64,000 nt of DNA from Hydrolagus colliei (Eukaryota): contig CM068755.1 of assembly GCA_035084275.1 (NCBI GenBank), positions 8,680,001 to 8,744,000 of the forward strand, in the 5' to 3' direction. The notes beneath the pieces were generated by a model that had not been told where the DNA came from, made no database searches, and saw nothing but the letters and a program-made list of their open reading frames with translations. The translations under genes were made by a program, and so were the position numbers. Of the stretch, positions 7,706-49,400 are shown in pieces. Numbering within the stretch: position 1 is the first letter of the stretch; each line of letters begins with the position of its first letter.

Positions 7706-8380
7706 ATCCCACTTTTATCTGTGTCTAAAATCACCAGCCCGTCCCCTCCCTAAATCATTTTCAAATGTTCAGCTTCCTCACACCGCCAAGTTCTGTAATA
7801 GTTCTGTAACTCTAAGGTAATTTGTCTTATCACATCGTGACTATTAACACCATTATTCAAATTGGTGATGTAATTGGTTCTTCACATCTCAATTTAACGA
7901 CCATATCGTAAAGTCTTTTTGATATGATTTGCAGGAAAAACATCACAGTTCAGAGCGACAAAGAGGGATATATAGGACGAGGATTCGACCCGTTGGTCTA
8001 TCGTGTCTGATCTACCACTTTATCAGCTCATTGCAATGACCCCAGGTAAAGATTGCCAAATGGATGGTTACTAGTGTGCAACTAGAATGAGATTGTGTGT
8101 TTGAGTTGCAAAGGGATTCCCACGTCCTTTGTGATAGATGATCTTGGCAATTTGAAGGTATAAATCAGGTAAACATGGAGGAAGTGGAGGGATACATGGG
8201 AATGACAATGGAAATTCCCATCCAGTTATAATAATAATAATCCTTGCATTTAATATAGCAATACATTTAATATCCTTGCATTTAATATATTTGAATTTAT
8301 ATATGTAAATTTGTATTGTGTATCTCCAGAATGTCGCTGTATCACTAAACACCAGCTATTGTTTGTAAATTGTGTTTTAG

Positions 8381-10731
8381 TGCACGGGGAGCCCTGCTCA
8401 TTTACGTACAATCACTACTGTGTAAACGGAGGCACCTGCTACATTTTAACAGACTCCAAACCATTCTGCTGGTAAGTGAACTTTTGCTTATTGGCACAAA
8501 GTGATTCCAATAGGTTTTGTTTGACGTGAATGCAGAATTTACAATTTCAATTCACTGAAAGTTTAGAATCAGAAATCAGAAATATGAGTGATTTGCATTC
8601 ATATTAGCACTCCATATTTCCCCTAATGTTACAGCATTACAAACCAGCCATTTGTATCATGATGTTTGTATTAATGTCAATGTATGCATCTCCAAAAATG
8701 CCACCTATCTCATCCCCAACAATTCCCTGTTCTTTCTCTGTACCTTTCAATACCATTCTTTGGCATGTGATCATTTAATTCCTTCTTAAATTCCCCCAAT
8801 CAACTCTACTCTAATTGATCTGGCAAATGCTTTTAATTTATAGAATCATAGAATTATACAGCACCGAAGGAGGCCATTCAGCCCATCGTGTCTGTGCCGG
8901 CTCTTGGGAATCCCACTACCCCGCGCTCCTCCCATAGCCCTGCAAACCTGTCCTCCCCAAATAATATTTATTTCTTAAACGTTGTAATAACTATTTATTT
9001 CTTAAAGGTTGATACTGACCCACTCGCCAGTGAAAATAGTTTCTCCTTGTTCACACTATTGAATCCTCTGATAACTTCGAAAACTTCTATTGAGTCTTCT
9101 CTTAAGATCACTGCTCCAAGGAGAATAATCCTAGATTCTCCAGCCTCTCCTGCTTACTGAAGTCCATCATTCCTGATAAACGTCCTGGTAAATCTCCTTT
9201 GCACCTTCCGCGATGCCTTGACATCCTTCCCAAAGTATGGTACTCAGATCTGAACACTGTATTCCAGCTGAGGCTTAACTAGTGTTTTATAAATTCTCTT
9301 GTAAAACAATACAGATGCAGTTAAATATAACTTACAGTGCAATGGTTTACCATGGTCAGGTTGCCTCTGAGACTTTGGCTCCAATATACCTGAGATTGAC
9401 AGGGTTACAGTCTGCTCTTTCTTGTATTTTCTATCAATAATGCAATAGTTATATTTGGGAGATTGGGGAGTATCCATGCAAAACTTACCTTTGGGAGATA
9501 TAGTAGGTGAGGTGTATCCAATTGGACTGAGCTTGTTGAGGAAGCATGGTTAATGAGCCAAATGGTGTTTTACGTTCTCATGTTCCAAACCTCTCCTGAT
9601 CGTTGTGCCGTTGTACAACTCAAATTGAAATGCTCTCATTTTTCACAGGTGTAATCCAGCATTTGCCGGACGTCGATGTGAACTATTCCTGCTTCGTAGT
9701 GAGAAGCCAGATGTGGTTTCGAATTGGCCATTAATATATGTTGTACTGGTGACACTCCTGATAGTGCTTATTATCATTATTTCTGTAACCTGCTTTTGCT
9801 GCAGGTAAGCAAATTTCAAGAAAGGCAGTTATTGCAATGTGTGATTTGTGTAAGTGTTTGCATATATATATATAGCCATACTTGTATTAATGTGTGAGTG
9901 TATATCTTTAGCTCCGCAAAACTTCACATGCCCACCCGTCTGTCTTCAAATGCTGCCTAAAAGCCTACCTCTATGATAACTTTTGCCTGCAAAATACAGT
10001 CAATTCACTTTACCGTATATTTTGTGAAGGGCTTTGAGACATCTCAACGATGTGAGGTGCTATATCAAATGCAAGAATTCTTCTTATTACTTCCCTCCTA
10101 CTTTTCCATATCCTCCTGCTCAGTGCCCAGCACCATGTCTGTAAAGATATTACGTGAAAGAACGCTGTATAATACAAATGGAAATGCAGATTTCTAAGTA
10201 CATATACAATATAGCTCACAGAATATAATCAATTCACTTTACTGTATATTCTGTGACCCGCTTTGATTAGATTCTATACGTGATTAGATGCTATAAATGA
10301 TTAGATGCTATATCAAATGCAAGGATCATTACATGCTTGTGTGTAATATGGTGGATGACATAGCTGGAAATCTGCCTCCAGCCATTGCAATACCCACTTA
10401 TGCATAAACTGGAATGGTCTGATTGAAAACTACCTATTGGAAATCAATCTGCACCATCCTCTCATTTACTGAGCAAATCAATCACTCGAATATCCAGAGC
10501 AAACTTTTCACAGATATCCTGCTCTTTAAAATTATTAAGACGTCCACTGGGGCAGATTTTGCAGCTTTTCAGGGAGTAGGTGTAAAATACCCAATTGCCC
10601 TTTCTCATTCTGTGTCTTATGTTCCCTCACTTTTAAGAAAATGGAGACAGAGGAGAAGGAATCAACAAGATGGAAGCTTATACCACAGCACGATAGTAAG
10701 GACACAGGCAGAAATCCTGCAGATTCCTTGA
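8381..10731 (+). CDS. NRG4: Neuregulin-4 (pro-NRG4): EGF domain, transmembrane segment and short cytoplasmic tail; 5' start exon not located
   Basis: Exons 8381-8471 (tttag|..HGEPCSFTYNHYCVNGGTCYILTDSKPFC|gtaagt), 9649-9804 (cacag|WCNPAFAGRRCELFLLRSEKPDVVSNWPLIYVVLVTLLIVLIIIISVTCFCCR|gtaagc) and probably 10638-10731 (tttaag|KWRQRRRNQQDGSLYHSTIVRTQAEILQIP*). Six-Cys EGF motif with the intron between Cys4 and Cys5, typical of ErbB ligands. Tail-to-tail with FBXO22 as in mammals. The last exon is less certain. Confidence 0.85.
8839..9295 (-). mobile_element. CR1 LINE 3' fragment
   Basis: Minus-strand YKTLVKPQLEYSVQI resembles the CR1 ORF2 C-terminus; the tail reads tagaatcatagaat on the plus strand. 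Confidence 0.8.
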
Positions 10732-12604
10732 TGCCTTCAGACCATTTCAGCTCAACATCAAAAAGACTAAGGCACTCTGGTCATCTCTCTTCAAGGAAAG
10801 AAAGGTCCCAATGCAGATTAAGATTGTGGCCTACAAGACTCTTTTGCCGACAGTTTTCCTTCATGGTTCCAAGCTTCCGGGCATGTGGTGAAGGGGTTTC
10901 CTCTGGCCTATTTATGAACTCCAAGATCAAAAAGTGAGCTAGATTTGTGCTAATCTGGGGAGACAGCTACAGGGAAGGAGGCCTCAGTTTACACAGGAGC
11001 ATCCTGGAGATGGAGTTGGCTTCATAGTGGGCACATCAATTTGCCAAAGCTCCTCGCATGAGGACCTGAATGAAGCAGTCGGTTCTGATTAAGTCTGGAT
11101 AGCAGCTTTGATCTTGGACCCCTGGAGTATTAAGGTAGTTGGATGCAGGAGATATATTGACCAGGAAACTTTACTGTTCTTCAAGCTAACGCCATAGGAC
11201 CTTTAACATACTCCTCAACCACCAGATGCAATTATGGTTTAAGGACTTAATATTAATAATCCTTGCATTTGATATAGATTCTTAGCATGTCTTCAACATG
11301 TGCTAATCTTTTCTATTTATTGTAAAAAGGATTTTATTTACTTATCTAAAGAACAGCATGCATGACAATTCAGTACTGATCTGAAATGTCAGCCTCTCAG
11401 TTTGCTTGACTTTACACCTGACCACGCTGGTCATGTATGTTAGAGCAAATTATGCAAAATCATCAAAAGGGGGTGTTTGTGTATGGAGGAGTGTGTGGGG
11501 GGGGGGGGGGGGGGGGGGTGCGCGGATAGATTCTTCCCCCAGCACTAAATAAACAGAATTTTTAAATATATATTTTTAAAATTATTTCCTGTTTCACTTT
11601 ATTTCTGAATTACAATTCATTCTGGGATCAATATACCAGCAGGAGAAGCAGTCAAGCCTCAATGGCAGATGCTCCTTGATGGGGCTTCAATCACCTGTTT
11701 TCTTACAATAATATGTTTGTTATAGCGTTGTTGACGCCATGACGATATTTCAAAGCATTTTACAGATTAGATACTATGCTCCATCTATACAATGAGTCCT
11801 ATTTTCTTGGCAAAGATAGCAGTCAATTTGCACAGGCAATGTACCGCAAACAGCCACAAAGTGAGTGACCAATTTTATTTTGGGGATTGTTGGCCAGGAC
11901 ACTGGGAGAAACTCCCTAGTCTTTTCAAATGGTACCATGGCATCTTTAACACCCATTTGAACGGGAAGACATAAGCTTATTTTAACATCTCATCGAAACA
12001 ATGGCACCTCCAGCAACGTAACACCCTCCAACACAGCAGTGAAATGGCAACCTATGATACGTGTTCAAAGTCCCGACTTGTGACATGAACTCAAAAACTT
12101 CCGACTCAGGGGTGAGAGACTGACGCACTTTCAGAAGAAGCAAAAAAAAATGGATTGGGGGTTGTTGGGTAGACATTCATTTGTAAACTTTTCCAATACA
12201 AAAAACTGCTTGATTGTTGTCCTGCAGTGTCCCATAATAAACACAAGGCTGTGGAAGAATTAGGTCTCCACAGTGTAAAAACAGAAAGACTGGGTGCACA
12301 TTGTGCGAAATTCAGCTGTATGCTTGAGAAGATGCAAAAAAAGCGATTTCATTTTCACAAATTGAAGTCACTATCATGAGTGATTAATTAGCCCCCTGAG
12401 GCTGTGTAGAACTAGCTCACCTCTTGTTTCCCTAAACAAATGTCCTACTGGATGACACGCCAACATGAGTATCTAAAGCAACACAAGGCGACCAAAGTGC
12501 TGGGCAGTACCATACCTAAAGGTACATTTTGCAACAAGACTCAGCATACCAAAAATGATTTATTTGCAGAAAATACAGGAGATGACAGGGAGAGGCAAAA
12601 TGCA

Positions 12605-14695
12605 AGCAGGCACAAATGCCCCTGCAAGAGCTTTGCTCAACTTAAGACATACTCAGAAGTGACCCTTATTGTCTCTAGATGGTCTGTGGATCCTTTTCTC
12701 TCCTCGCAGCGTCTTGCTGTTGCTTTCTCTGTTGTTGAATCTTCCTGCTTGAATTGATTCCTGATTCTGTCTGGGTTCTTACTGTTGTTTTGGCCTTAAG
12801 CCACTTAGAAAAGCTGTGGGAGACCATCCTGTAGTGTACATGTGCTTGAAGATCAGGCATTTTGGCACCTGAAACCAGCAAGTGATACTAAATTGTTTTT
12901 CCTCAACTCGAGTGTAAATATGCTCCCCTTCAAGTTTATGCCATCATTTGACCTTAATACTTGTCACCTTCAAAACGATTGGATTCACAGCTCCTCTTTC
13001 TGCTTCTCGTGTGATGTGTTGAGGGTTTTGGTACCATACCAAAAGATTTGGGAACCAAACTTCTCATTATGACAAATCCATTTGCATTTACCCACAAAGG
13101 ATGACATGCAACATTAAATGTTTTAAATGGAGGAAGTGGTTAAGGGAGGAGCACAGCCTGATGTAATACTGTTATGGGATGATGGCAACTATACAACTTG
13201 TGTTTGCATAGCACCCTTCATGCAGAAGTCTGATGAAACGGATACAACAAATTGGATTTATATAGTGCTCTCCACCCCGGACGTCTGAGAAAGTATTTAG
13301 AAATTCATGCAAAATGTTTTGCTCAAGGTAATCAACTTCTTTATCTTTCCCCCTGAATTGAAAATATTAACATTGATTTCAATTTTTTTTTTTTTTTAAG
13401 CAGTTCCCACTTGATTCTGCTTATTTCTGAGTAAATGATACTAGTTTGCCATGATTTCAATTGAGTCCTGAAAAAAACACAACCTCCTTTTGGAGCTATG
13501 TTTGTCACAATGACGTACTGGAAAGTGTCGACATTTGGATTTCTTAATTAATGAACTCTGCTATTAATAGCAACATATTAGCTCTCGCTGTGTCAATAAC
13601 AGTTAATCATGAACAAAATATTTGTTACCATTTTCCACACCTTTTAAAGTGTGTGTGAAAACAGCCCATCAGGCAGACTGTTTTTCCATCACTGCAGTTT
13701 TAACAACAACAACAACAAAATTACATTTGGATACCGCTTTGAAAGGGGAGCCAAAGCCCAGGATAATCCTGTATTTTGTGGATTTCGAAGATTACTTTAA
13801 AGATCCGATAAGTAGTCATTTTTAATTTGGGAACAAAAAATTAAGATGCAAATTTGGATTATGAAGATCTGCATATTTACATCCCTTTTCCTATATCTGC
13901 CTTCAAAATACTCTTAAAAATTCTCTTTGCCAAGCCTTTGGTCCATATCCTTAAATTTGCCTTCCTTTCTGCTCTACTATCTACTCTGGGAAGTGTTTGA
14001 AACATTCATTTTACATGAGAAACACTCTGAAGCGCTAATTGTTGCAATTAGATGCAGGCGAGTACTTTAATCTGCAAATTTATAGACCACTTAACTAAAA
14101 ACTCAAGGACTTAAAAACAATGATGAAAATCAATCCAAGAGAGGGAAAAGTCTCTGCACCCTTTTCCTTTGGGAAGGAAAATAATAAAATCATTTTGGGT
14201 GAATTTCACCAGCCTTGGAACAGCCAGCCTGCAAAGTAATTGAATAATACTGGAATCTCACTGCACAAGCTACAGAAATTGGAGCTGTGAATGCAATAGT
14301 TTTTAAATGGTTAAAATAGTTTTACAGTAGGTTCATCAAATTATGACATAATCTTGAAGGGGAACATATTTACACACATTTGTGGAAAACCAATTTAGTA
14401 TCCCTTGCTGGTATCAGGTGCCAAAAGGCCTGATCTGCAGGCACGTCACCATAGGATAGTCTCCCACAGTTTTTCTGAATGGCTAAAGGCCAAGACAACA
14501 ATAGGAACACAGACAGAATCAGGAATCAATTCAAGCAAGAAGATTCGACAACTTCTCCTACAGAGAAAGCAACAGCAAGACGCTGATGTAGAGAGAGAAA
14601 AAAAACCAACAGACCATCTGGGGACCCCAAGGGTTTCTTCTGAATACAGCTCAGGTGAGCAAAGCTCTTACAGTGACATTGTGCCAAGATTCTAC
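12605..14695. repeat. Long diverged inverted repeat: arms ~12605-13005 and ~14270-14695
   Basis: The arms are reverse complements by eye, e.g. cagacagaatcaggaatcaattcaagca, caatttagtatc, cttgaagggga, ggagctgtgaat, gagcaaagctctt. The homologous ORFs 12675..12881(-) and 14405..14749(+) lie in them. Confidence 0.9.
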
Positions 14696-16053
14696 CTCCC
14701 ACTCCTGCCTTTTTTGGATAGAGTTATTCTTCTCAAATTAAGAGTGTAGGTAGAGCATTGATGTAGAAATCGAGAAGGATTGAAAGGCATCAGGGAAACG
14801 GGTGAAAAATCACTTCAAACAAAAGCAAAAACAGAACCGATTTTGATGACTATTAACCGGCTTGATAGTGTGGAATAGCTTGCATGGATACCTAGGTCCA
14901 TTGACAGATACAACAGTTTTTGTAATAAAAAATGATCATTTTATAATAAAATGCAAATGCACAGAACAGTTTTGTTTTGATCTATTGTATTTCACGTTTT
15001 TTTTGAGTACCCATTTAAACAAAAGTGACTTACAAAATCGTCTGAATCCTTTCTTGAAATTATAAAAATCATTAAAATGAAATGCAGATAAATTGATTTG
15101 TTAGAGGAACTGCTGTTTATTCGGTTCTTAAAAGAGTTAACAACAACAACACCCTTCACGTCGGAAAGTCGTTCAACAAATGTTACTGCAGAAAAAATGC
15201 TCTGCAAGCTGTTGCATTAAAAGGTATGAATTGCTACCACATCTGCATCACAAAAACACTGGAGAGATGATTATATCCCATTGGCTCAAGGTTACTAATG
15301 CCAGGTTACACAATGTCTACAGTTATGCGGAGATAAAAAGAAAAACTGCAAATGTTGGAAACCTGCAAATGCAGAAATACTAGCAGTGCACAGCAGGTTG
15401 CTCAGTACTTGAAAGAGGAAAATGTGTTAACATTTTAGTTATGACCTCTTTCAGATCATCTGCTGCGATTTCCTGCATTTTCAGTTTCTGCCAATTCCAC
15501 ACAGACTCATTCCCGCCAACTCACTTGTGCTCCTGATCCTCCGCACAAATTCAGTCTGGCGACAAACACAGTTTGGTTAACCAACAGTTATTTGGTGTGT
15601 GGATATCCTTTGTTCAAGCAGTGAAAGGGTCATGGCGATCACATTGCTAACATTAATCCCAATCACTATATCTATCCCAGACAGTACTTTGGATCAACAT
15701 TTTTAAATGCTTTTAAAAGAATATTCATTTGTAATCACATGTCTACCCAACTTTTATGCACAAAACATAACCATTTTATCCAAATCTACAGACCAACTAA
15801 TCTGAAAGCATTGATATTTTACACGTTAATACAAACAGGTGATTGATTATTGAACTAAAGTTTCCTTTTTTTAAATCTAACTTTGCTGGCTTATCTCATA
15901 AAACATCCTTGGGCTTTGTGTTAAAACAATTAAATCAATACACCTGGTTCAAAGATTCTAGAACAAGTGGAATATAGAAACACCAGCTTGGGTGTAAATC
16001 TGTATTAGGCATTGGCTAAATTAACTTGCACGCTGATTGCCTCATTGGGTCTT

Positions 16054-19000
16054 TTATTTAACTGGTCCCAGGTGGATAAGTGCCATTACTGTAGTATAAT
16101 CATGAAAAAGTTCATTGCAATCTTTGGAATTAGAGCATTCCCGGAGAGAAAAGTTTTCTGTTACAATGCGGTCACATCCAATTTCTCCATTACCGAAAAA
16201 CCCAAATAAAGGAATGGTTGGGAACTGCTTCCGAAAAGCGTCAGCTTCCACATTCTCCTTATTGGAGTAGTAATCCTGACCCCGACCAATACAGGTAAAC
16301 ATGAAGCCAACCGTGTTGCTCTCTGGTATGTTGGCTGCTTTGAGACGCTGCATCGCTGCTTCCACGCTTTCTGGAGTATCAACATCCTCTCCTAGCAGAA
16401 CCGATGCTGCTTGGATTGGTTTTCCACTGAACGCCAGCCCGACAAAACCATAGGAGTGTTGGACGTCAAATCTGTGGGGGAGGAAATGAAATCCCTGCTG
16501 AAAATTGTAAATCTGTGGCATTCTGTGGCTGTTGGCATAAAACTTTTCAAGTAGCGTCATTGAATCTTAATTCCCACCTAAAGGACAGGCAGATGGCAAC
16601 AGACTGCATCTCTCATGATGCAGTTCTCTCCAAGTTCTGCACTGGACAAAAAGGTCAAGGCCCAAGGTGCAAAATACATCTGATCAACAGGCGAGAGGCA
16701 TCCTCAAGCCAAACTGACATATGACAGCTAAACCCTTGGTCTGTCGTTGTTATTTCAAATTTCTTATTTTTCTGCCTTTAAGCCTCACCCCAACTGTGCT
16801 TATGGCCACTTTCCCTTCACGCTTGCTCAACTTCTAATCCATCCCTATAAAGCGCACATGTACATTATGCTATGTAAATACAAGTTGTTGTTGTTTGACC
16901 TACCTTTCACTACGAGGCGAGAATACTCTGTCGATGTGGCCCCCAGCTACAACCGTGCTTTTTACGCTGAATTGTTGTGTTAGTCGCTGAAGGAAGTTTG
17001 TGGCTGCTTCTTTCATTGTGTTGTATCCAAACAGGAGAACTGCACGCAGGTCAGGGTTATCTTGAAGGCCTGTGGGAGGTGAAAGACATTTATTATGTAG
17101 CAAACAATGAACTTAGCAACATCGACAAATGTACAAATCACTTGAAGTTTCAACTTTTGAAGTCTGCAATGATAATAATTTTTAAAATGCTTGCAATTGT
17201 TATTGTGTCTGCAACACTGAAACATCTCAAAGCACTTTATAGATAATTTCTGTCAATTACCTATAACCTATAATTAAAAATACAACATATTTTGTGGGCA
17301 AAACTTGGCAGTAAAAGGAAATTATGATGCAGAGCCAGTCACGCGGAGCTAATGTCTCAACGGTGAATGAAATGCAGATTGCAAAACCAATGAAATGATG
17401 TAGAGCTTGGGAAACATTTCAAAGAGCAAACCATAGGGACAGACCCATTAACAAGCAATAAAATTCCTGGAATGTTTGTTAAAGTATTAGACGTTGCATG
17501 AATCAGAAGATTAGTCCTAATCAAAATGCACCCGATTCAGAAAGTATCTGAGCTGAATTTGCTGTGATGTGTACAGTGGGCATAAACAGTTTTGTGATTT
17601 AGATCAGATATTGTTGCCCTGAGAATTCTGCCTGGTTAATATTACGTAGCTGTAGTATCATAGTTGCCACTAGGTAGCACTGTAACACGAACACTGAAAT
17701 CAATTCTAACATCAAATCACAAATAAATCTTCCGACCCGCTACATAATCCTGTAGTCTAAATTTAAGTTTATGAACAGTACCATCTAGTGTCTAGAAGCG
17801 AAATATAACAGAAGGTTGCAACACATGTTTCATCATAACAAAAGGATTTTCTTCAGCTGAAAACAAAACTAAGAAGCTTTAAAAGACATCATTTAGGTCA
17901 GAAATAAGGTTCCCAAAGACTGATGGATCCAAGTTCTACCCTTGTGCTTGACAGATCATCTCTAGATACCTGAAAATTATTTCAAATTATGTGGATGAAA
18001 TTAGTTCATCCACATCACGTGATAAAATCTGGAAACCTATAAATTTCTCCATCAAGAGTACTTATTAAATAGGTGTATTTAACCCAGTGTGAGATTTTAA
18101 TCTGCATTTCCACATTATGGCTGCCTTTCTTAAAAGTACAGTTAATTAGATCCATTTTTAAATGCATTGAGGAGAGGAAATCGGATGTAGAAACAATTTT
18201 CACAACAGGAATATCAGGGATGATTGGCTGTAATTACCAATGTAAAATGACAAGCAAGTGGATGACTTATTAAAACTCATATGGCATGAAAAATTAGAAA
18301 ATTCACTTCTAAAACATGAAAAAAAAAATTAAATAGATGAATCTGCACTACTCACTTGCATTTTGTTTCCACAAATTATTCTCTTCTCCGTTTTATCCAG
18401 CAAGGACCAGGTTGGACCAGAAAGGACCAGGTTGGACCAGAAAGGACCAGGTTCCTTTTTTGTTAACTTTATAGCCCTTTTTCTGAAAGTGACTGCTGAT
18501 GAGGGTCACCTTCCAGTTACCAGACTATTTGTTGGTGTGGAAAGGAAGTCCCACACACATGCACACTCTTTCTAGGAGCAGTCACTGCATAAGCATCAGA
18601 AGATTGAGCACTGGCTGATTTTTCCTCTCACTAATCCAGCAGTGGTCATGCCAATTGTACACTGAGACCAGGGAAGATATGAACAGGTGTTCCTCGCTTA
18701 ACGTCATAGTTTGATTCTTGAAAAGTGATACTTTAAGCGAAACACGTTAAGCAAACATATTTTCCCATAAGAATTAATGTATAATCTAGAGTTAGGTTCT
18801 TTTGGACATTTTGCATCAACATTTTCTAAAAAAAAACATTATATTCGCTCCCTGACTGCCTGCCCGGCTCACTCACTCCCTGACTGCCGGCTCATTTATT
18901 CGCTGCCGGCTGGCTGGTCTCACTCACTGACAGCCTGACTCTCTCTCAGCCTGCCCATCATTCTCTTGACGGGCGGGCCCTAGCGCCATTGTGCCCCCTT

Positions 19001-22000
19001 TCCACCCGCTGGCGAACAACGTAATAGCGAACGTCGCAACGTAAAATGAATATATGTTCCCAATGTATCAGCAACATAATAACGAAAGAACGTTAACCGA
19101 GACAATGTTAAGCGGGGTTTACCTGTGCACTCCTGCATTGTGGCCACAATTATATTGCTGCAAGATGTACTGCACAATTTTTTTTTTTAAGTTGCACAAG
19201 ATGTGTTTCAAAAGAAATCATCAACCAGATACAAGTCTCGCTCACCTGCATCTCGGAGTCTTTCCTGATCAAAAGCTTTATCTTTCAAATTTTTGTTTGA
19301 AAAGTGGAAGAATTTGATTGTTACTCCTTCGATTTTGGGCAAGAGAAGAGCAAATCCTGCGGTTCCATCTTCCTCCTCCCGGGGTCGCTCTCTGCCACAT
19401 CCCATAGGAGTATCTGAAAACATAAAACATCAGCTGAGCGTATTCGAGATCAACAGGAACAGTGAAGTGTTCCATTTGGTTTGTGGGGATTTTACATATC
19501 GAACAAACTGACACTGTAAATGGACATGCAGAGATCAATTCACATCTTCCATCCATTTTGCTAAATTAATGTTAGTTGTTGCTAGTTGAGTAAACCATCT
19601 AAATTGCAAAAAAACACACAAATTAGGGATGTTTTACTCAAATTATTTGAGAAATGGTGTTAAAAGGAACAAACCTATTGAGGCTGGAATACATTGATAC
19701 ATCTTAGAATATTAAGGTATGTTGGGTAAATATCAATAGTCATCACTTACAGACAATACCAGGTGCACTGAACCCCACAGCCTTGCAATCGACGGGCAGT
19801 AAGCGCTCCACTTCCGCTGCCACTTCAGCATCTTTGTTTCTTTTCAGTACATCATACTTCCTCTCTGCAGCATTTTAATTTTAAGCATCAAAATCACAAG
19901 GTAAATTATTTTATATTAATTAGTTACGTGCAATGACTTTTTTGTAGGCAATTGAAGCATTTTGTACACAGCAGTCTCAGCCACTGTCCATGAGGTCAGT
20001 GACCAATTTGCCTGGAGGTTTGTTGGCTACGACAAGGGGAAAAGTTCCTTCTCTTTTCAAATGGTGTCATGTGTTCTTTAATATTCACCTGAACAAATAG
20101 TCATGACCCTGGTTTAACATCTCAACCAAAAGACAGCAACTTCCCCAAGTTCTGCATTTGAATGGCAGTCCATATTGTGAGTTCAAGTCCCAATGTGGGA
20201 ATTAAACCCATAACCTTCTGACCCAGAGTGCTCTGAACACAGCCAAGCTGACATGTTAACAAATAAACATAAAGATTTAAACACAAAGACTCCTCTAGCT
20301 TCAGCTTCTGTTGCCTACACCTTTGCCTGAAACACTGCAAATCTAGATATACAACATTTCCAGAAGCTTGATTACATACTCCAGCTGATTTAAAGGCTAT
20401 TAACTATGCCAGAAAACAGGATTTTTGCTGCCTTACCAACAGATGTACAACACATTAGCTTGTCATTGAAGCAAATCTTTCCCACCATCCCCATGCCCCC
20501 ACCGAGGCCTAAAAAGGAAAAGTATTTCACCTTTCCTCCTTCTGCGAGAACTGAAGGTGTCTGTGCCAGTCATGTACAGCACTGTCTGCGGAAGTACATA
20601 CACATCCTGTTCAAAAGAAATGAGAGTTTTGGCATTGTACTGTATTATACAAATGTAATTTTGTTGTATTAGCAGCAACATTCAGTGTTTTGACACAAAT
20701 ACGAGTCAGTGATAACATTAGGAATGCAAACATTAGCCACTCACAAACTTAACATGGCACTACAGTACTGTACCAGATAATAATAATAATAAAGATAAGG
20801 AAAGTATCTCAGATCATTTGAGCCAGCAACAGTTGAGAAACTCCATCAACATAATTTTTTATTTCACCTAAACCACCAGAATGGGCTCTTGATTTACACC
20901 CTAGTATTTAAGATGGCTCGAACGCTGACAAGAGCTTTCATCAGCCACTGGTACAATTTTAACCAAAAGGCAACGGATTAAACAAATCAATTAACGCATA
21001 AGAAAAGAGCATTTACTACCCACAGGAAACCCCTACAACTGTCTCCTCTCTTTAAAGAGAAAGCCACCACTTACTTCAAGATCAGTAATCATTTTCTTCA
21101 CCAAAAAATGATCACCATCATCATCATCTAGATCTGACAGGGCTTTTGCAGAAATCCATGACAGCTTTTGATGCATCCGGATCACCCTACGTGCACAATC
21201 TCTCCACAGCCTGCATACTCTGAAACACAAATATTTAAGTACTGAGTCAAGCAATCACCACAGATCTAGATGGATAATACTGTTGCATTGTTTTAATTTA
21301 AATACGATAACACCAACATTTTCACCACAGGAGACCATTTATTTACATTATGGACGATAACAGCAACATTGTGGTAAAGCCCAGGGGCGGGAGGTGCAAT
21401 GAGCTGGACAGTGAGTCAGCCTAGCTCTATCAGTAGCACTCGCCCGAGGCCAGATCAGGACTCAGAACAAATATTGCTTAAGGTAACAAGTCTGGGCCAT
21501 GTTGGGGAGGTAAGCGATCCGGGACGCTGCCCTGCATGAGAGGCGTTATATTGCTATTGTTGCATTGTTGGAGGTGCTGTCTGTCGGAAGAATCATTAAA
21601 CCAAGGTCCCATTTCTGTCTTCCACTGTCCTGGCCAACAATTCCCCCAAATAAAAGCTGTTACTCAGTCTGTGGCTGTTCGTGGGACACGGCTGTGTGTA
21701 ACTGGCTGCAGCGTTTCACCCAAACACAGTCACGCAGCTTTACAATACATCTCGAGACATCTCGAAGATGTGATAAGGTGAGTCCTGTAGCTCAGTGGCT
21801 AAAGCAATCGCCTTACAAGTAAGAAACCTGGGTTCGATTCCAGGCAGGGCGAAACCTTGGGCAAATTTGCTTACTCCACATGGCTAATAATAATCCCTAA
21901 AAATAAATTGGTCAATTCAATCCATGACTGTTTGTGGGGACGGGGCTGTGCACAATTGGCTGCCGCGTTTCGCCCACAAATATACAATCAATTCAGTTTA

Positions 22001-22393
22001 CAGTCTATTCTGTGAAGCGCTTTGAGACGTCTAGAAGACGTGAAAAGCGCTACATCAAATGCAAGGATTATTATCATTATTTATTATTAAAGGATTATTA
22101 TTACTATGACTATTATCATCTGTTAAATGCTTCGAGGCATCTCGACGCTGTGATTAGGCACGATATCAAATGCAAGGAGTATATTATTATTATGATTATT
22201 AGTTCCAATGAAGCGCTTTGGGACGTCCTCGAGGTGAAAGGCGCCAAACCAAAGGCACGGATTGTCATGACTACCTGGCGCTCCCGAGCAAGGACTTTGT
22301 CGGTAGGAACAACATGATCCTCTCCACCACCTCGGCCACGCTGCTCAACACCGAGCTGGCGCTATCCGGGCTTTTACTCTGAGCCCCGTCCAT
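16054..22393 (-). CDS. FBXO22: F-box only protein 22 (F-box plus FIST domains), complete, 401 aa
   Basis: Exons (minus): 22393-22275, 21219-21075, 20606-20531, 19864-19751, 19413-19246, 17069-16904, 16471-16054. All GT-AG and phase-consistent, 1206 nt in total. Diagnostic motifs: [76 protein letters not shown]. Confidence 0.96.
18402..18453. repeat. Tandem repeat, 20-bp unit AAAGGACCAGGTTGGACCAG, ~2.6 copies
   Basis: Directly visible; lies in FBXO22 intron 5. Confidence 0.9.
18684..19125. mobile_element. Tc1/mariner (pogo/Tigger-like) non-autonomous element
   Basis: Imperfect TIRs caggtgttcctcgcttaacgt / atgttaagcggggtttacctg, subterminal (c)gttaa(g)cg repeats and internal ctccctgactgcc repeats. 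TA TSD eroded. Confidence 0.65.
21780..22260 (+). mobile_element. Full tRNA-derived SINE followed by additional SINE/L2 tail fragments, FBXO22 intron 1
   Basis: agtcctgtagctcagtgg..ggttcgattcc head; tails ending aaatgcaagga(tta)n at ~22060 and ~22170. Confidence 0.88.
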
Positions 22394-22764: not shown

Positions 22765-23242
22765 GAGTCCTGTAGCTCAGTGGTTAGAGCACTCAGCCTT
22801 ACAAGCGTAAGACCAGTGTTCGAATCCAGGCAGATCAGGGCAAAACGTTACTCCACACGCTTAATAATAATCCGTCCAAAAAAAACCCACCATAATAAAA
22901 TTGGTCATTTCAATCCACGAATGTTTGTGGGACACTGCTGTGCACAATTGGCTGCCACATTTTGTCCACAAATATACAGTCAATTCACTTTACAGTATAT
23001 TCTGTGAAGCACTTTGAGACGTTGTTAAGATGTGAAAAATGCTGTATGAAATGCAGGATTATTATTATAATAAATTGGTCACTTCAATCCATGACTGGTT
23101 GTTTGCAGGACATTGCTGTGCGCAATTGGCTGCTGTGTTTTGCCCACAAATATAATCAATTCACTTTACGATATATTCTGTGAAGCGCTTTGAGACGTCT
23201 AGAAGACATGGAAAGGGCTATATCAAATACAAAGATTATTAT
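22765..23242 (+). mobile_element. Two tandem tRNA-derived SINE copies (full plus 5'-truncated)
   Basis: Head gagtcctgtagctcagtggttagagca; body aattggtca..caattggctg..cactttac..tattctgtgaagc occurs twice. Confidence 0.88.
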
Positions 23243-26299: not shown

Positions 26300-27296
26300 G
26301 GATTCCAGGCTGCAATCCTAAACTGATCAATCCCAGACCGGTGAGAATGAAAAAAAAAGGGAATGTTTTTTTGGTGGTGGATTGGGGAAAAGAGAGGGGG
26401 CAGAGAGGAGAGGACGGCCAGGGAAGTTGGGGGTGGAAAAGGAGAAGGGGGGAGGGGGGGGGGGGGTGGAAGAGAGAGTGAGTGAGTGAGTGAGTGAGAG
26501 AGGGAGAGAGAGTAAAGCTAAATCAAGCGTGAAGTGGAACAGTGGAACAAAGCTGCAGGTAGGTTAGAAAGAGAGCAGGAGAGAGTGAGACTGTGAGAAA
26601 GAGTGAGGAAGCATTTGCATCTCACAAAACCGCGACAAATTAATGTTCTATGCGGGATGTTGTGATCGAAGCAGTGTGGACAAAAGGGGACAGGGAGGGG
26701 GGGAAATCCAGGGTTAGAGAGAAAGAGAGAGAGAGAAAGGAGTAGTGTGTGTGTGTGTGTGGGGGGGGGGGTAAATTTGCTTACTGGCTGCACAGATTCC
26801 GGATAATACCCTGTGGGACACTAGCTCACACTTAACTGGAAAAGACTCGGGAGTTCGGGAGGAAGAGAAAAAAAAGCAACAGCAGTGGTAACTTTATTTT
26901 AAGGGCAGGCGCGGGTTGACCAAGGAAGTTAGACGGAAAAGTGTGTGGGGGGGGGGGGGGGGGGGAGGGAGAGAAGAAAAAGAAGAGGGTGGGGGGGGAA
27001 TGCGATTTTTCTCTTTTATATATAAAGAAGAGAGCGAGAGAAGAGGGTTTTTTTTCTCTTCGCTGTGATGCGAGTCGGAAAGGATTTTGTTTTGCAAGGC
27101 GACCTTGTTTAGCTCACAGTGGGAAGAGACTGGGTGAACATGGTTGAGTTGGGGTTTGATTCGAGGTGAGAAAGAGACAGAGAAGGGAGGAAGGAGTGGA
27201 GAAGGGAGGGAAAGAGAGAAAGGGAGAAGGGGGGAGAGAGGGAGAGAGAGAGGTAGGGGAATTGAATGGGGCCGTGGAAGGAATTGGCTTGAGAGA

Positions 27297-28136
27297 ATGA
27301 TCCGCGCTATCGAGGTGGTTTGGTACATGTTGTCGACTGTGACTTGGCTGAGCTCGGGAGCTGGGGGGCAACATGTTTGTTGGCAAGCGCTGCTTCGATG
27401 CCAGGAGGAGAAGGAGTGCAAATGGGCTTACAACCAATACACCACCGCCTGCGATTCCTTCCTGAAAGGAGCGAGGAAGCAATGCCCGAGCCACTGCATA
27501 GGAGCCTTGGTCAAACTCAACCAAACGCACAACGGACCCGACTTGGAAAGCTGCGACTGCGGGCAGGACGTACAATGCAGGCGGGCCAAGCGAGCCATCG
27601 AGCCGTGTATGCCCAGGAGGTACCGAGCCGATTCTGCCGACCCGTCCGATCTGGGATGCACCGAAGCCCGGCAGCGCTGCGAGGAGGAGTCGGTGTGTCA
27701 CAGCGCCATGAAGCGCTATCTGTCCAACTGCGGGCAGCTCTTCAACGGCAGGAGATGCACCTACCAGTGCAGGACCACCATTCAGTACTTGCTCTCCATC
27801 CCCACCGGGGTCTCGCTCAACACGTGTGTCTGCGACGGCGTCGAGAGACCTTTCTGTGAGGTGGTGAAGGACAACATGCACAGGTTTTGTGCCATCAATG
27901 GCCAGACGGTCTTCACGGCTGTACCGGGGCCGGGATCAGGACCGGGACCGGGTCCGGAGTCGGAGGAGAATTACTATTACGAGGATTACGATATGAACAA
28001 AACGGATCTAAAGCCCGAGAGAAGCGGTGAAGCGGACACGCGGACTAACGGCTCCTCCAGCGCCCATCACCATCACCTCCACCATCTCCACACGTGGCTA
28101 CTCCTGCCCCCGCTCCTGGTATTGTGGTTTCCATAA
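27297..28136 (+). CDS. GAS1: Growth arrest-specific protein 1-like (GAS1 paralogue, gas1b-type), intronless, predicted GPI-anchored, 279 aa
   Basis: First in-frame ATG at 27297 is followed by a signal-peptide-like segment. Two GDNF/GAS1 domains with 10 Cys each (CWQALLRCQEE..CPSHCIGAL..LESCDC; GCTEAR..YLSNCGQLFNGRRCT..CVCDGVERPFCE.VK.NM.RFC). Hydrophobic C-terminus WLLLPPLLVLWFP; CpG-rich. The TTG start at 27144 in the ORF track runs through a GA-rich UTR. Confidence 0.92.
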   Translation: MIRAIEVVWYMLSTVTWLSSGAGGQHVCWQALLRCQEEKECKWAYNQYTTACDSFLKGARKQCPSHCIGALVKLNQTHNGPDLESCDCGQDVQCRRAKRAIEPCMPRRYRADSADPSDLGCTEARQRCEEESVCHSAMKRYLSNCGQLFNGRRCTYQCRTTIQYLLSIPTGVSLNTCVCDGVERPFCEVVKDNMHRFCAINGQTVFTAVPGPGSGPGPGPESEENYYYEDYDMNKTDLKPERSGEADTRTNGSSSAHHHHLHHLHTWLLLPPLLVLWFP

Positions 28137-32932: not shown

Positions 32933-33240
32933 GAGTCCTGTAGCTCTGTGTTTAGAGCACTCGCCTTGCAAGTGAGAGACCAGGGCTTGATTCCCGGCCG
33001 GGCGAAACCTTGGGCAAGTTTCCTTACTCTACACGGCTGATAATAATCCCTCGCAAAAAACAAAAACAATAATAATTTGGTCACTTCAATCCTTGTTTGT
33101 GGGACACTGCTGTACCCAATTGGCTGCCATGTTTCTCCCACAAAATATAGTCACTATACTTTACAGTATATTCTGTGAAGCGCTTCGAGATATCTAAAAG
33201 ACATGAAATGCATTGTATGTTGCAAGGATTTTTTTTATTA
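32933..33240 (+). mobile_element. Full-length tRNA-derived SINE
   Basis: gagtcctgtagctc head and family body. Further partial copies at ~5505-5645, 9985-10090, 10225-10330, 30195-30310(-), 32205-32370, 36265-36375(-), 48915-49275(-), 51455-51660(-), 56298-56405(-), 59775-59940(-). Confidence 0.88.
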
Positions 33241-43400: not shown

Positions 43401-46400
43401 AGGAGCGGAAGGAGGGAGGAAATCTATGCTTGTGTAAAAACTACACAAAACCCCAACAAGCCACACGGCCTTCTATCAGATATATGAGCCAGCACTGGAG
43501 TCGTGCTGATAACAATGGCTCTGCTCAAATTGAAACACCCAGCATGTAGATACCAGGATATTATCAATACACACACACACACACAAACCCAAACTCCCAT
43601 ACCGCCTGCTCAAGACTCTCAGCGTTCGGCATGTGATCCAAATCCACGAAGGGGTGAGTGAAGAATTCCTCAAAGGTGATGCGTTGTGCAGGGTCTCTCT
43701 CCAGCAGCCGGACGAGCAGATCCCTGCAGTCCGCTGAGACCCGAGCGCCAGCGGGGATCTGAAATTAAACCATTGTGTTAACATCCAAGAAACTGAGCCG
43801 CAGAGAGAGGGGGAAGAGACAGAGGAAGAAAGAGAGACAAAAAGAGCAATGTTTCAAACAATAAAGACTTCAATTTATAATAACTTTTCAAAAAAAATTG
43901 ACTTATAAAAAGAGTCACTACATTTGACAGCGATTACCTGTGAAGCACTTGGAGATTTTTCAACAGGGACTATATATAAAGGCAAGCACTACTCTTTTCC
44001 AGCTGGGCAAGTACAGAACTGTCTGAATTTCACTCCTTTTCTGCAAATCACCCGAGAGTAATTCTACCCATGTCTAGATTCATTCTATTTATGTAGCATT
44101 TTAGAGCATCTGGAATTTGGAATGCAGCCTTAACTTTGAAGTCAGTTTTTTGTAAAGACTGAATTCAACAATTTGTCCAAATCCAGGCACTCTACAGTGG
44201 ATATCCTTATAGATCTCACTCCAACTACTTACTAAAGTGTGTAGATGGAGTACAAGAACCACAACAAAATTACATTTATTACATTCAGCGCCTTGGGACG
44301 TCCTCCTGAAAGGCGCTCTATAAATGTAATTTTGTTTGTTTGTTTATAGAGCGCCTTTCACGTCGGGAGTAAAATCTATATGGACTTTAACCATGCCTTT
44401 ATCCCAACCTGATTAACACACTTCCTACTGTTCCAGAATACTTCAATCTAAGATACTGCCCCACAGATACTGCCCCAGTTGTCAGATATAGATAACTATA
44501 CCAAAAGCCTCTCCAGGGAGCATAAATATGCTCAAACAATCACACTTAAACACACTGAAAACATGGGCACAATCGCCACCTGGTGGAAGGATGTATAACA
44601 CTATCTATTCTTTTCTGGTTTATTGGGATCAAGAAACCATATTAGTTTTTAAATCAGAATTAGATAAATATAAAAGAGTCATGAGAAAACGCAGGGGTTT
44701 GGGACTAAACAGAGAGCTTTTTCAGAGAGCCAGAACAGGCTTTGTTGTGTCCTGTAAATTTCTAGAGTTCTACAGTTAGGCGATTGTTTTTAGGGGAAGA
44801 GGGTTAAAAATATATCAACCAGTTACCGCTCATGATTGACGCCTGAAGCCCCCCCAAAACCCTCCCCTCCCGTGGGACACTGCACTTGTGTGGACTTCAT
44901 GTGTGGATGGCATTGGGCTCAGCTGCACCTGTCTGATCTGAGTGAGGGAAATACAAGGAACTGTCTCTGCGCTTCCCACACCTCGACTGGCTTATTGCTG
45001 CGAATCTTCGCTTCCAGTTCTGTGAATGACTTTGAGGAAAACGGTGGGCGGCCAAACAAAGCTTCTGAAACGAGATAATAATAACAATAATAATCATGAG
45101 AATCCTTGCATTCAAATTAGGGACTTATCACATCCAAACATCTCAAAAGGTTTCATAGTGGCTCCATACAGTGCCTGCAGTGACCTGTGTATTTTAGGTG
45201 AACTTGGCAGCCAATTTGCGTACCTTGCAGAGTCAGGAAGCAATCCCTTACAGGGTCAGGAGGAGAATGACAATTTTTTTCTGGAGGATTATTCGCCCAT
45301 ACACAAGGACAAATTTCTCTCTATTCAAGTAGTTTACATTGAAGATTGTTACTAAAAAGAAACAAATTGCATCAATATAGTGACTTGCACGCCAAGAGGG
45401 CATCCCAAGGCCCTGAAAGGCAGAAGTTTAACAGAAGGTTATTAGGATCTGGAATGCCCTAGAAAAAACCAGTAGGAATCAAAATATAACTGAACGAGTT
45501 AAGTATGAAGGGTGTGCAGAGACAGCCTCCACCAATTGTTCTTTCAGAGACCTGATGGGCCGATTAGCCTTCTTCTGTAAACTTTTGCAATTATTTAAGT
45601 TAAATTACTTTTCCCTTGGAGAGGGAAATACATTTGTGGTTGACCTGACTGGTTGGCAGCAATTCATCCACATATTGTTAACACAACCTCATCCTTCAAA
45701 CCAAGTCCCAATGGATAGGACAGACCCAGCTGGGCAAGTACTAGCTAAGGGATTGCCCAATAAGCTTACGCCAGTTCATCTTGATGAACTATATACAAAT
45801 TAGTGTGAGTAAGTAGCAGTCTGGTTGCTGCAATTGACTGATCCTGGGCTTGCATTGGAAATGGTTTGCATTTCTGACTCACCATATAGAATGACTCCCA
45901 ACGACCACAAATCAGCCCTGGCATCATACTGCTCCTGACACACCATCTCTGGAGCCATGTACAGAGGAGAGCCCCTCAGCACACGCTTCTCATCCCACGG
46001 GGACATGTACAATGCAAAGCCGAAGTCTGTGGAGCAAACACAACACCAGTCCCTTGAACAAAACAATTGTTTCAGCAATTCTACCTCCTTGCTCTCTTCT
46101 GATTGGATCGGATTTCACAGGTGCTCTATCATACCTTGCTCAGGTGGCCATTCTTCATGCATGAGGCTAGATAGTGAATGCTGTTGGGGGTATTTAATTG
46201 GGGTCGGGGGAGATGGCATCATTGCCATACCTTATCCCTGGGAGTGGTAGACAATCAGTGATTGGGGGGGCAGAAATGTTGGCTGATGTCTCTTCTCCCC
46301 AGCCATGGATATTTTTGTCACTTGTACGTAGGAACCAGTAACGTAAAGGACTGGAAAAGACCATCTGAACAGGAAAAAGAAAATGAATTAAACTGGCATC

Positions 46401-49400
46401 CCTCTCTTATGCCCCCTCTAGGCAAACTGTTGTCTCAAAGCACTTGATTAAGTAACCGAGCAAGGAAATAAGATCCAAAGTTCCTGGCTAAAGTCCCAGT
46501 CAAACAAATATTGTGTTAGGAGGTTTTTAAATGCTGCAAGAGAGGTGGCAACAGAACATGGGCTTGAAAATGAGGTCCAGAGGTCAGGTGCTTGGGGCTA
46601 AAGACTTACTCTGCAATGAAGGAGAGAAGGGAGTGAGCAACAGACAAGAATACGATTAAAGGTCAGGGTGCCTGAGACACTCATGATAACTCACCAGCAA
46701 GTTTGAGGTGAGGTGTGTTCATAGAACTTAGGAGAATGTTCTGTGGCTTCAGGTCAAGGTGAGAGATGTTATGCTCATGCAGATACTTTAGGGCCGAGGC
46801 TGACAAAGGGAAAAACATCAACTTAGAATCCCCTTCACAAAAGATAACACCTTGGAGCCCTTCACAATGATGTAGTCGGATGCAGAGGAAGGGTAGGTGA
46901 CCATAGATGTGGTCAGAGAGGAAGGTATTAAGGTGGGATTTAAAGATTGATACAGCGGGTGCGAGACAGAGGGATACAGGCAGGGAGCAATGCTTGGGGC
47001 ATATTCACCAAAGGCTCAGCCTTTTATGGTGACACAAAGTATTCCTCCTCTTTTTGAATAGTATCACAAGGCCTTTAATGCCAATCTGAACAAGTAGACA
47101 GTATCTCAGCTTAATCTTTCTTCCGAAAGTCAATAACTGCAACAACTGGGGCAGAAGGTTGAATGTTCAAGCTCCACGTCGAGACTTGGACTCCCAGATT
47201 CCAGTTTCTTGCTGGGGAGAGCTGCATATTGACAAACAGTGTCATGTTTTGGGTTGAGTATTTAAACCAAGGTCCCATCTGCCTGTTCATCACTTGGACA
47301 TTAACAGAACACCATTAGGAAAGAGAAGAGAGTTTTGCACAGTGTCCTGGCCTACAGTCTTCCAGATGGATTGTGTTATGTGCTTCATGACCATTTATGA
47401 CTTCCGTGTTTGCCTACAAACGACAGACCCTACACTTGAAGGAAATAACAGTGAAACACATGAGATATTTCGATGTGATACGCTGCTATAAAAAAGCAAG
47501 TTCTCTTATGAAAGTGAGTTCCCTTCTTACCGAGCTGCTGGAGGAAACGACGCACCACTCGCTCCGGGAGCATCCTGCGGCTTCGAATGAAGCGAGAGAG
47601 ATCCCCGGCAGCCGCGAACTCCATGATCAGGTATATGTTGTCACTGTCCCACTAGCAACAAGGAAGTAAGATCAAACCATTTGTTAATTGGTGGAGCCAT
47701 TTGGCTAAGAAGCTAAGACCTCACGCGCTCATCCCCCACCTCCATCTCCGCCCCAGTGGGAACACCAAGGCAGAAGGAAAATTCCTGCCCTTCTCCATTT
47801 AGGCCTCTGATTGCCTAGGAATCCCTCTAAATATTCCAGTACTCTGAAACTGTCCCACCGAGGGCAACTTTCACACGCTTTTTATCTGGAGGTCATAGAT
47901 GTGTCACCAGGCCCGACTCAATAAATGAAGGGAAGAAACCATGAAGTGGGCAGGGAAACAGCGATCCTTTTGTCGTGACCGAAAGTGAGGCAACTGGCCT
48001 GAGTCTCTGAACATCAAGTCTCAACGACGCGAAGGAAACAAGGAGCAGAAACCAGATAAGCGAGAGTAAAGATGTTGAATGCAAGTTAAAATGGGCTGCT
48101 CCCAAACACCAGTGGTCAATTACAGAGTAGGGGGAGCAGAGGCCAAGCTTTCAGTCACTTGATGAACACAGTTGACTAAGAATTACTCAATACACAGACT
48201 AACAACACCAACACAGATTTTTTCTTACAACATCTTATTATTTTTGATTAAAAGCAACTTGACCTTTTTAATCATTACCTTTCCTACAGCGTTTTAGTGC
48301 AAACAGACCTGAAAATCCTTGAGTTGTATGATGTGAGGGTGCCGGACTGTCTTGAGAATCTCAATCTCAGTCAGGAGATTCTCCACTGAAGCTTTGTTCA
48401 AACTCTTTTTACTGATGCACTTGATAGCCACAACCTCGCGATTGCTAGCCTGTTGAAATACCGAGTTGAAAAATGTGATCATTGGAAGAAATTAAACAGA
48501 TGGAACATAAGAGCATAGAGGACCATAAAAGACCATTACGGTCCATCAATATTATTATTATAAGTGGAACAATAAATAATAGGAATATAAATATTTTCTA
48601 CCTAGAAAGAGATCATTCAGCCACTATTTCTGTTTCACTGCTACATTGTCTTTCTTCTAATTCAATGATTTCCACTTTCCTGCTCTCTCCCCTTATCCCT
48701 TAAATGTTTTTGCTGCTAAGGTTTTCACATTGATTCCGTAAGTGATTGTGGAGAGAGGGCAGGGGAGCAGGCCCAATGGATAGGTTCCTTCCGAGTCCTG
48801 GTGCTTGGGAGGACGTGCCAAATGATCTCCTGCTTTGCCGTACAATTGTAATAATTCTGCAAGTGCGTTGCTCAACCATTACCCTGACATCTTTATTAAT
48901 AATTTGAACAATTTGAATCCTTGCATTTGATATAGGGCCATCTCACACCATTGAGACTTCTCAAAGCACCTCACAAGATACATTGCAAAGTGAATTGACT
49001 ATATATTCTGTGGGAAAATTAGCAGCCAACTGAACACAGCAGTGTCCCCACAAACAGTTGTGGATTGAGTGCTCACACTTTTTTAAAAAAGAAACTATTA
49101 CCCTTGGAAAGCCGTATGCTAATCGACTAACAACCAGATTCCTACTTACTACCAGGTAAACAGAGGCTTGTGGAGGAAGCAAAATTGTCTAATGTTTTGA
49201 TCTGTCCAGGTGGTCAACAACGAAGCCCTTTCACTTGCGAGGCGGGTGCTCTAACCAATATGCTACAGGACTCCACAAATTCTGTGTAACCACCAGATTA
49301 AAAAAAATAAATAAATAGGGTTTACATTGAACTTGAAACTTGTATGGGTTTGAAACAATGTGTCCTTTGTACAACAACAACAACTTGTATTTATATTACC

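Follow-up and report, generated by a model that had tools for sequence, protein, structure and literature searches.

Between the 3′ ends of two convergent genes, the window (the whole 64,000-nt stretch of Hydrolagus colliei DNA that was analysed) holds two diverged arms in inverted orientation, one of which carries an open, exon-like segment with a TQT motif. The question raised by this locus is whether that segment is an exon in use, the relic of an exon, or part of an inverted repeat whose significance lies in the RNA that it forms. An earlier note on this DNA had offered three origins for it, namely a duplicated exon of an unannotated gene, an alternative extension of NRG4, or a remnant of a transposon gene, and had added that read-through from either neighbouring gene would form long double-stranded RNA. 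The features on which the argument rests are as follows.

8036 to 10731, + strand: NRG4-like coding exons (8036-8045, 8381-8471, 9649-9804 and 10638-10731), joining into a single open frame of 116 codons and a stop.
12609 to 13011, − strand: left arm by blastn, with a weaker extension to ~12567.
12641 to 12868, − strand: broken copy of the unit, in which the acceptor is kept but a −1 shift leads to a stop (12675-12677) and the donor is degraded.
13012 to 14263, no strand: spacer, predicted to be the hairpin loop; apart from two 40-nt repeat fragments it is unique.
14264 to 14685, + strand: right arm by blastn, with a weaker extension to ~14716.
14418 to 14654, + strand: exon-like unit of 237 nt, phase 1-1, open, with an AG acceptor and a strong GT donor; its peptide is without Met.
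14507 to 14515, + strand: codons of the TQT triplet, present in the left copy too.
14924 to 14950, + strand: two AATAAA signals (at 14924 and 14945), the candidate 3′ end of a + strand transcript.
16054 to 22319, − strand: FBXO22-like gene, convergent, its last exon having its own stop at 16054-16056.

When the window was compared with itself by blastn, positions 12609-13002 aligned with 14685-14273 at 79.2% identity over 419 columns (E 5e-93), and a laxer comparison lengthened the arms to 12609-13011 and 14685-14264, with a spacer of 1,252 nt (13012-14263) between them. This inverted duplication is far above chance expectation. The earlier description of two ~400-bp arms ~1.25 kb apart was borne out, as was their position between the 3′ ends of NRG4 and FBXO22 (stops at 10731 on the + strand and 16054 on the − strand), two names that follow the earlier labels and are probable. 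Inverted pairs as such are not rare in this neighbourhood, given that 8 of at least 150 nt and within 5 kb were counted in 264 kb. No third copy of the arm was present within 100 kb on either side (the same 264-kb neighbourhood). A search of the 1.0-Gb genome with the DNA and both peptides, in which the best candidates were scored, gave at least two matches, both of which were the arms; the spacer was without a long copy elsewhere in the genome. The copy number, a lower bound, thus gave no sign of a high-copy transposon fragment and spoke against a high-copy transposon remnant as the origin of the arms. In the laxer blastn comparison, likeness was confined to the arms and no homology was found between their flanks, which argues that the two copies have no common partner exons; moreover, a search of 100 kb to either side gave no partner exons sharing homology with the arms. 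The outer ends showed no target-site duplication of 6-12 nt, shorter or decayed ones being beyond the range of this test. The inner flank (14264-14417) was as similar between the arms as the unit itself (84.5%), and its differences comprised 18 transversions and 4 transitions, a bias opposite to that of the unit.

The unit in the right arm is bounded by an AG at 14416-14417 and a GT at 14655. Over ~5.3 kb, its donor ranked first among 240 GT sites and its acceptor ninth among 322 AG sites, according to a simple scoring table with approximate frequencies. The acceptor, the strong donor and the open phase-1 frame of 237 nt were found as previously described, and the peptide was identical to the earlier reading. 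Open, symmetric AG...GT units of such quality number three in 264 kb on both strands; one of the three is presumably a true exon of a neighbouring gene, and another is noise-like. Within the unit, the left copy differs by indels of +3, −9 and −3 nt, the last of which was divided 2+1 by the aligner, followed by −1 near 14608 and +1 near 14650. The claim that the first three indels preserve the frame (3, 9 and 3 nt) therefore held, and the 1-nt shift, the stop at 12675-12677 and the degraded donor of the left arm were all recovered. Both copies also keep TT.xTQTES. The proposal that TQT here is an LC8-binding core stood as far as the motif is concerned, but the motif alone is no proof of binding (PMC6607443, in the part of the text available). 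A second acceptor at 14564 delimits a 91-nt unit of phase 0-1 (14564-14654, + strand) that would be compatible with a weak phase-0 GT of NRG4 at 10696; RNA support for this unit was not seen.

Substitutions between the two copies were then used to gauge a coding past. In the previously proposed frame, pairwise dN/dS was 0.33 over 71 codons (Fisher p=0.004), i.e. not near 1, and 0.26 over the 5′ part as compared with ~1 in the other two + strand frames, by a method that disregards the transition excess. Synonymous changes made up 8 of 17 substitutions in codons 14420-14586, in agreement with the earlier estimate of about half in the best-aligned part, and 14 of the 33 scored over the whole unit; the six synonymous codon pairs that had been named were all present. 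When 34 substitutions were permuted with their kinds kept, 14 were synonymous versus 9.1 expected (p=0.032, or p=0.10 over six frames). Of the 5 indels in the unit, 3 were multiples of three, as compared with none of the 8 in the flanks (p=0.035); if the 2+1 gap is taken as two separate indels, this contrast weakens to p=0.16. The coding signal lies marginally above chance and amounts to a hint. From it we infer, by a modest preponderance of probability, that the segment once coded; descent from an exon is plausible but weak.

Homology searches were directed at the unit and its peptide. No similar protein was found among longer or similar-length proteins by a protein search that was blind to the membrane exon of NRG4 as well; because this exon was likewise unmatched, the blanks are weak. 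Pfam gave no family for the unit peptide, the ESM Atlas no usable match, and Rfam no family within 10600-16100, and none of 101 candidates among viral contigs matched. A profile search of 1.84 billion representatives returned 3 matches, which were rejected, all being tandem-repeat proteins that had summed weak stretches. Also rejected were 3 of 77 metagenome contig candidates, none of which was significant at database scale (one match was a shadow frame seen twice and another a phage-like protein). The neuregulin intracellular domain family (PF02158) matched 9 places in the genome and none at the locus; ancestry from a neuregulin tail was rejected, the shared word QTES being the sole likeness and pairwise scores to 8 strong PF02158 places lying at shuffle level. 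In the same comparison, the weak C40 match gave a shuffle count of 8 of 5000 for the right peptide but 2592 of 5000 for the left one, and the DNA showed no match. No published work on the locus was found by a literature search that missed most subscription journals.

The flanking genes bear on how the unit could be joined to a transcript. The NRG4-like frame is complete without the unit, having its own stop at 10731, and the human form of NRG4 has 115 residues, close to the frame here (PMC10491916, as far as the accessible text goes). No phase-1 donor was found at the end of its last coding exon, where the sole GT is weak and of phase 0 and hence incompatible with the phase-1 acceptor of the unit. 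Moreover, no convincing + strand exon was found downstream as far as 27200. The contig of run X2 (described below) that follows the right arm ends ~135 nt past 14775, near 14910, and this end, together with the AATAAA signals at 14924-14950, fits a 4.2-kb 3′ UTR of NRG4; signals earlier than 14924 are also present on the + strand. On the opposite strand, the FBXO22 stop codon overlaps an AATAAA (16053-16058, −), and another − strand signal, at 15116-15121, is separated by ~170 nt from those of the + strand (14924-14950), which may bring the two 3′ ends close to meeting. Elsewhere in the window, a single frame of 332 codons (27138-28136, +) contains two GDNF/GAS1 stretches (PF02351, E 1.2e-8) and is, by its predicted product, a GAS1-like gene head-to-head with FBXO22. 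Exon-like frames at 45800-50000 (−) and 58416-58670 (−) are putative parts of ULK3 and of a SCAMP gene, respectively. A SINE-like dispersed family of 300 nt has many copies in both orientations (1472-1811, 21780-22088, 22765-23242, 32933-33240 and 59775-59937).

Splicing was assessed in runs against which the region 14180-14810 was compared. Two of them, X1 and X2, come from one study of a related species (share 0.14), consist of contigs rather than reads, and are RNA by our guess; they hold 217-269 million letters, with a local depth of 8-18. The third, X3, is DNA-like and contains the stretch whole; it is probably the source of the assembly and so is not independent. Aligned contigs numbered 22 (X1), 18 (X2) and 2 (X3). 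Both arm types were present in X1 and X2, the left type being recognised by loose ends (before 14377 and behind 14673) similar to the left-arm flanks, and the right type by contigs that continue along the right arm beyond 14775. Contigs of the left type extend at least 255 nt past the arm on either side. The earlier note had looked to RNA junctions at 14418 and 14654. No splice joints at either site were found in X1 or X2 (2 of 2 covering probable-RNA runs, in contigs, which drop rare forms), and no loose ends lay at these positions; contigs 7, 8, 13, 14 and 15, which include both arm types and both runs, were unbroken across 14654, and contigs 9, 10 and 11 of X2 were unbroken across the acceptor at 14418. 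Contig 3 of X1 starts at 14418, for which a variant 30 nt downstream and a junction are equally possible causes; junction contigs overlapping by only 30 nt may escape alignment. Depth was zero at 14180-14333 in both X1 and X2, and no contig spanned the spacer.

The same contigs bear on how the two copies have diverged. Across the unit, the relative's left arm shows net changes of +3, −3 and −3 nt, and its right arm an apparent loss of 4 (X1) or ~5 (X2) nt at the A run near 14596-14606, as read from gap counts and loose ends. The frame is apparently broken in opposite arms, the left one here and the right one in the relative. Given that a host gene would need a strand switch to use both copies, it is simpler to suppose that the copies fell out of use and then decayed at a slippery run. 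In the core of the relative's right arm, 8 of 137 letters differed from the window, and outside the core 15 of 113 (p=0.05); pairing or coding could each account for this slight hint of constraint. Of the 4 differences listed in 14419-14555, 3 were synonymous. At 14428 and its left-arm partner, A stands in both arms of the relative and G in both arms here; this paired change, a single site, fits inter-arm conversion or selection on pairing. Position 14769 is C in X3, X1 and X2 and A in the window, indicating an allele or an assembly error.

The arms are predicted to pair stably. Their duplex was calculated at −518 kcal/mol as compared with −157 for 10 shuffles, and in the predicted fold of 12500-14800, 344 of 422 right-arm bases were paired with the left arm, both splice sites included. 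The − strand duplex was slightly more stable (−544), with more G.U pairs (21 versus 12).

Letter changes in the relative were compared by kind and by strand. A>G exceeded G>A at 20:4 places in X1 and 28:4 in X2, as compared with 4:5 in X3 (p=0.0015, 2e-5 and 1.0, respectively). In each run, A>G and T>C account for 10 places apiece among the 40 listed rows; because many of these places look like fixed species or arm differences, GC-ward divergence explains part of the excess. Among the less supported places, obtained by subtraction over 39 further rows, A>G made up 10 of 21 in X1 and 18 of 29 in X2, with 2 G>A and 2 T>C in each; the contrast between listed and unlisted places gave p=0.012 for X2 and p=0.16 for X1, and the strand asymmetry among the unlisted X2 places (18 A>G versus 2 T>C) gave p=0.003. 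With contigs assigned from depths and ends, the right type varies A/G at 14477, 14501, 14611 and 14644, and the left type varies T/C at 14412, 14413 and 14431. At 14412-14413, three different combinations of T and C occur among the left-type contigs of X1. In X2, a loose end of the left type departs from the left arm of the window at 5 of its 14 letters, each time by T>C; the two T's spared in it correspond to + strand adenosines whose 5′ neighbour is G or C. The joint occurrence of A>G on the right and T>C on the left points to one + strand RNA containing both arms. In a set of sites picked by hand after the data had been seen, with neighbours read from the window rather than the relative, a 5′ U or A preceded 11 of 14 (p=0.017) and a 5′ G 1 of 14 (p=0.12), and 3 of 5 right-arm sites faced C (p=0.009). 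This pattern is in line with the preference of ADARs for 5′ U/A neighbours and for an A facing C, as described in the available portions of PMC3113232 and PMC10244592. Hyper-editing is documented in a cartilaginous fish, mostly in repeats (PMC5625713, from the part accessible). Of the earlier interpretation, the remark on read-through double-stranded RNA and A-to-I editing is the part that these changes in the relative's probable-RNA runs support (A>G 20:4 and 28:4).

Taken together, our preferred account, held with some reserve as a whole, is that an exon-like segment underwent an inverted duplication long ago, is present in few copies and now likely forms an edited + strand hairpin. Both arms would lie in one unspliced + strand RNA, probably a long 3′ UTR of NRG4 whose mRNA would end near 14924-14950; this RNA would fold into a ~400-bp hairpin, burying both splice sites, and ADAR would edit the hairpin from A to I. 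Editing, which we infer from the letter changes, very probably affects the hairpin in the relative, and the window's own species would presumably behave likewise. It is likely that the transcript concerned is the 3′ UTR of NRG4, and we consider it probable that the unit is not a regularly used exon today. The earlier interpretation as a whole was partly supported.

A different account would have the right-arm unit be an exon in use, restricted to certain tissues, that belongs to an unannotated + strand gene or to an NRG4 isoform and encodes an LC8-binding TQT peptide, with the hairpin tuning its inclusion. The ranks of its splice sites (1/240 and 9/322) and the count of three comparable units in 264 kb speak for it, as do dN/dS (0.33), the indels (3/5 versus 0/8, p=0.035), the 3 of 4 synonymous differences in 14419-14555, the start of X1 contig 3 at the acceptor, and the small residue at −2 and E at +2 of TIGTQTE, which are features of binders in the part of PMC6607443 available. 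However, no joints were seen and the donor was crossed by unbroken contigs in two runs, the relative's right arm apparently loses 4-5 nt near 14596-14606, and the coding tests soften to p=0.10 over six frames (from p=0.032) and to p=0.16 under a split gap. The last coding exon of NRG4 is without a phase-1 donor, no convincing + strand exon follows up to 27200, and many TQT peptides fail to bind LC8 (PMC6607443, same part). An exon in use is quite unlikely on this evidence. As a live exon of an unannotated gene, the duplicated exon of the earlier note is opposed by the missing joints, the crossed donors, the lack of a partner exon and a frame apparently broken in opposite arms; an alternative NRG4 extension is opposed by the lack of a compatible NRG4 donor and of joints, and by the completeness of NRG4 without the unit. 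Given that pairing of inverted repeats can alter the splicing of a nearby exon (PMC2533698, part of the article), one might also picture an orphan LC8-motif exon silenced by its own inverted duplicate, with pairing over the exon and its splice sites in the pre-mRNA; editing by ADAR would loosen the duplex and make inclusion dependent on it, and each lineage would keep a different copy in frame, the right one here and the left one in the relative. We regard this scenario as highly doubtful.

It is also unlikely that the arms are decayed terminal inverted repeats or the foldback remnant of an old, low-copy DNA transposon, in which the exon-like features would be those of a spliced transposon gene or due to chance and the hairpin would undergo the editing common to inverted repeats in general. 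The long inverted arms, which enclose 1.25 kb, are foldback-like, hyper-editing falls mainly in repeats (PMC5625713, same portion), and copy counts are lower bounds, the genome searches having scored the best candidates only. Set against this, two arms only were found by DNA, by both peptides and in 264 kb, no long copy of the spacer occurs elsewhere, the outer ends are without a direct repeat of 6-12 nt, and no Pfam family was recovered. Finally, the letter changes in X1 and X2 might be genomic (alleles, inter-arm conversion or GC-biased divergence) and the locus inert, without an RNA role. The RNA status of these runs is a guess, and alleles, gene conversion or a third copy could give the appearance of editing; fixed differences are frequent among the listed changes, the right-type G's at 14501, 14538 and 14644 match the left arm's letter, and the relative's arms share the change at 14428 that is absent from both arms here. 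Nevertheless, three haplotypes occur at one left-arm site in one run, A>G outnumbers T>C by 18 to 2 among the unlisted X2 places (p=0.003), 217-269 million letters with a depth of 8-18 are unlike whole-genome DNA, and 22 and 18 contigs aligned versus 2 in X3. An inert locus is very unlikely in light of these data.

Under the preferred account of an edited hairpin behind NRG4, the interest of the locus lies in its low copy number. Most hyper-edited hairpins derive from high-copy repeats and vary between species, whereas the hairpin here is low-copy, common to two species with ~13% flank divergence, and placed behind a growth-factor gene. It thus provides a clean locus for asking whether a non-repeat hairpin has been kept for a role in the fate of NRG4 mRNA and, if exon ancestry is true, a natural example in which an exon has been buried by an inverted duplicate of itself. 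Its current weight is that of a modest, locus-level finding.

The closest known systems are ADAR substrates formed by inverted repeats in 3′ UTRs, such as inverted Alu, SINE and ERV pairs (PMC5625713 and bioRxiv 10.1101/2022.08.29.505707, each in the part accessible), in which inverted copies lie within 2 kb at more than 65% identity. The arms here, with 79% at 1,252 nt, fall within these bounds; clusters of A>G on one strand, with neighbours partly like those that ADARs favour, were seen in the relative's guessed-RNA runs. Unlike Alu, SINE or ERV pairs, the arms were found twice, belong to no known family among those tested, and have the look of an exon with splice sites. The locus also resembles cis-natural antisense double-stranded RNA of the STUB1:JMJD8 type (bioRxiv 10.1101/2022.08.29.505707, same part) in being non-repetitive, likely edited and situated between convergent genes, but here an imperfect duplex within one molecule is predicted, and the changes indicate a single strand. 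With inverted intronic Alus (PMC2533698, as excerpted) it shares an inverted pair, pairing indicated by (here likely) editing, and a possible effect on splicing; here, however, the unit is one arm itself, both splice sites are predicted to be buried, and no spliced form was seen in the X1 and X2 contigs. Each copy resembles the LC8/DYNLL1 motif (PMC6607443) in having a TQT anchor followed by E at +2, but the left copy has R at −2 and the peptide is a putative one. The locus likely belongs with a known sort of ADAR substrate, and its origin is unusual, being low-copy and probably exon-derived.
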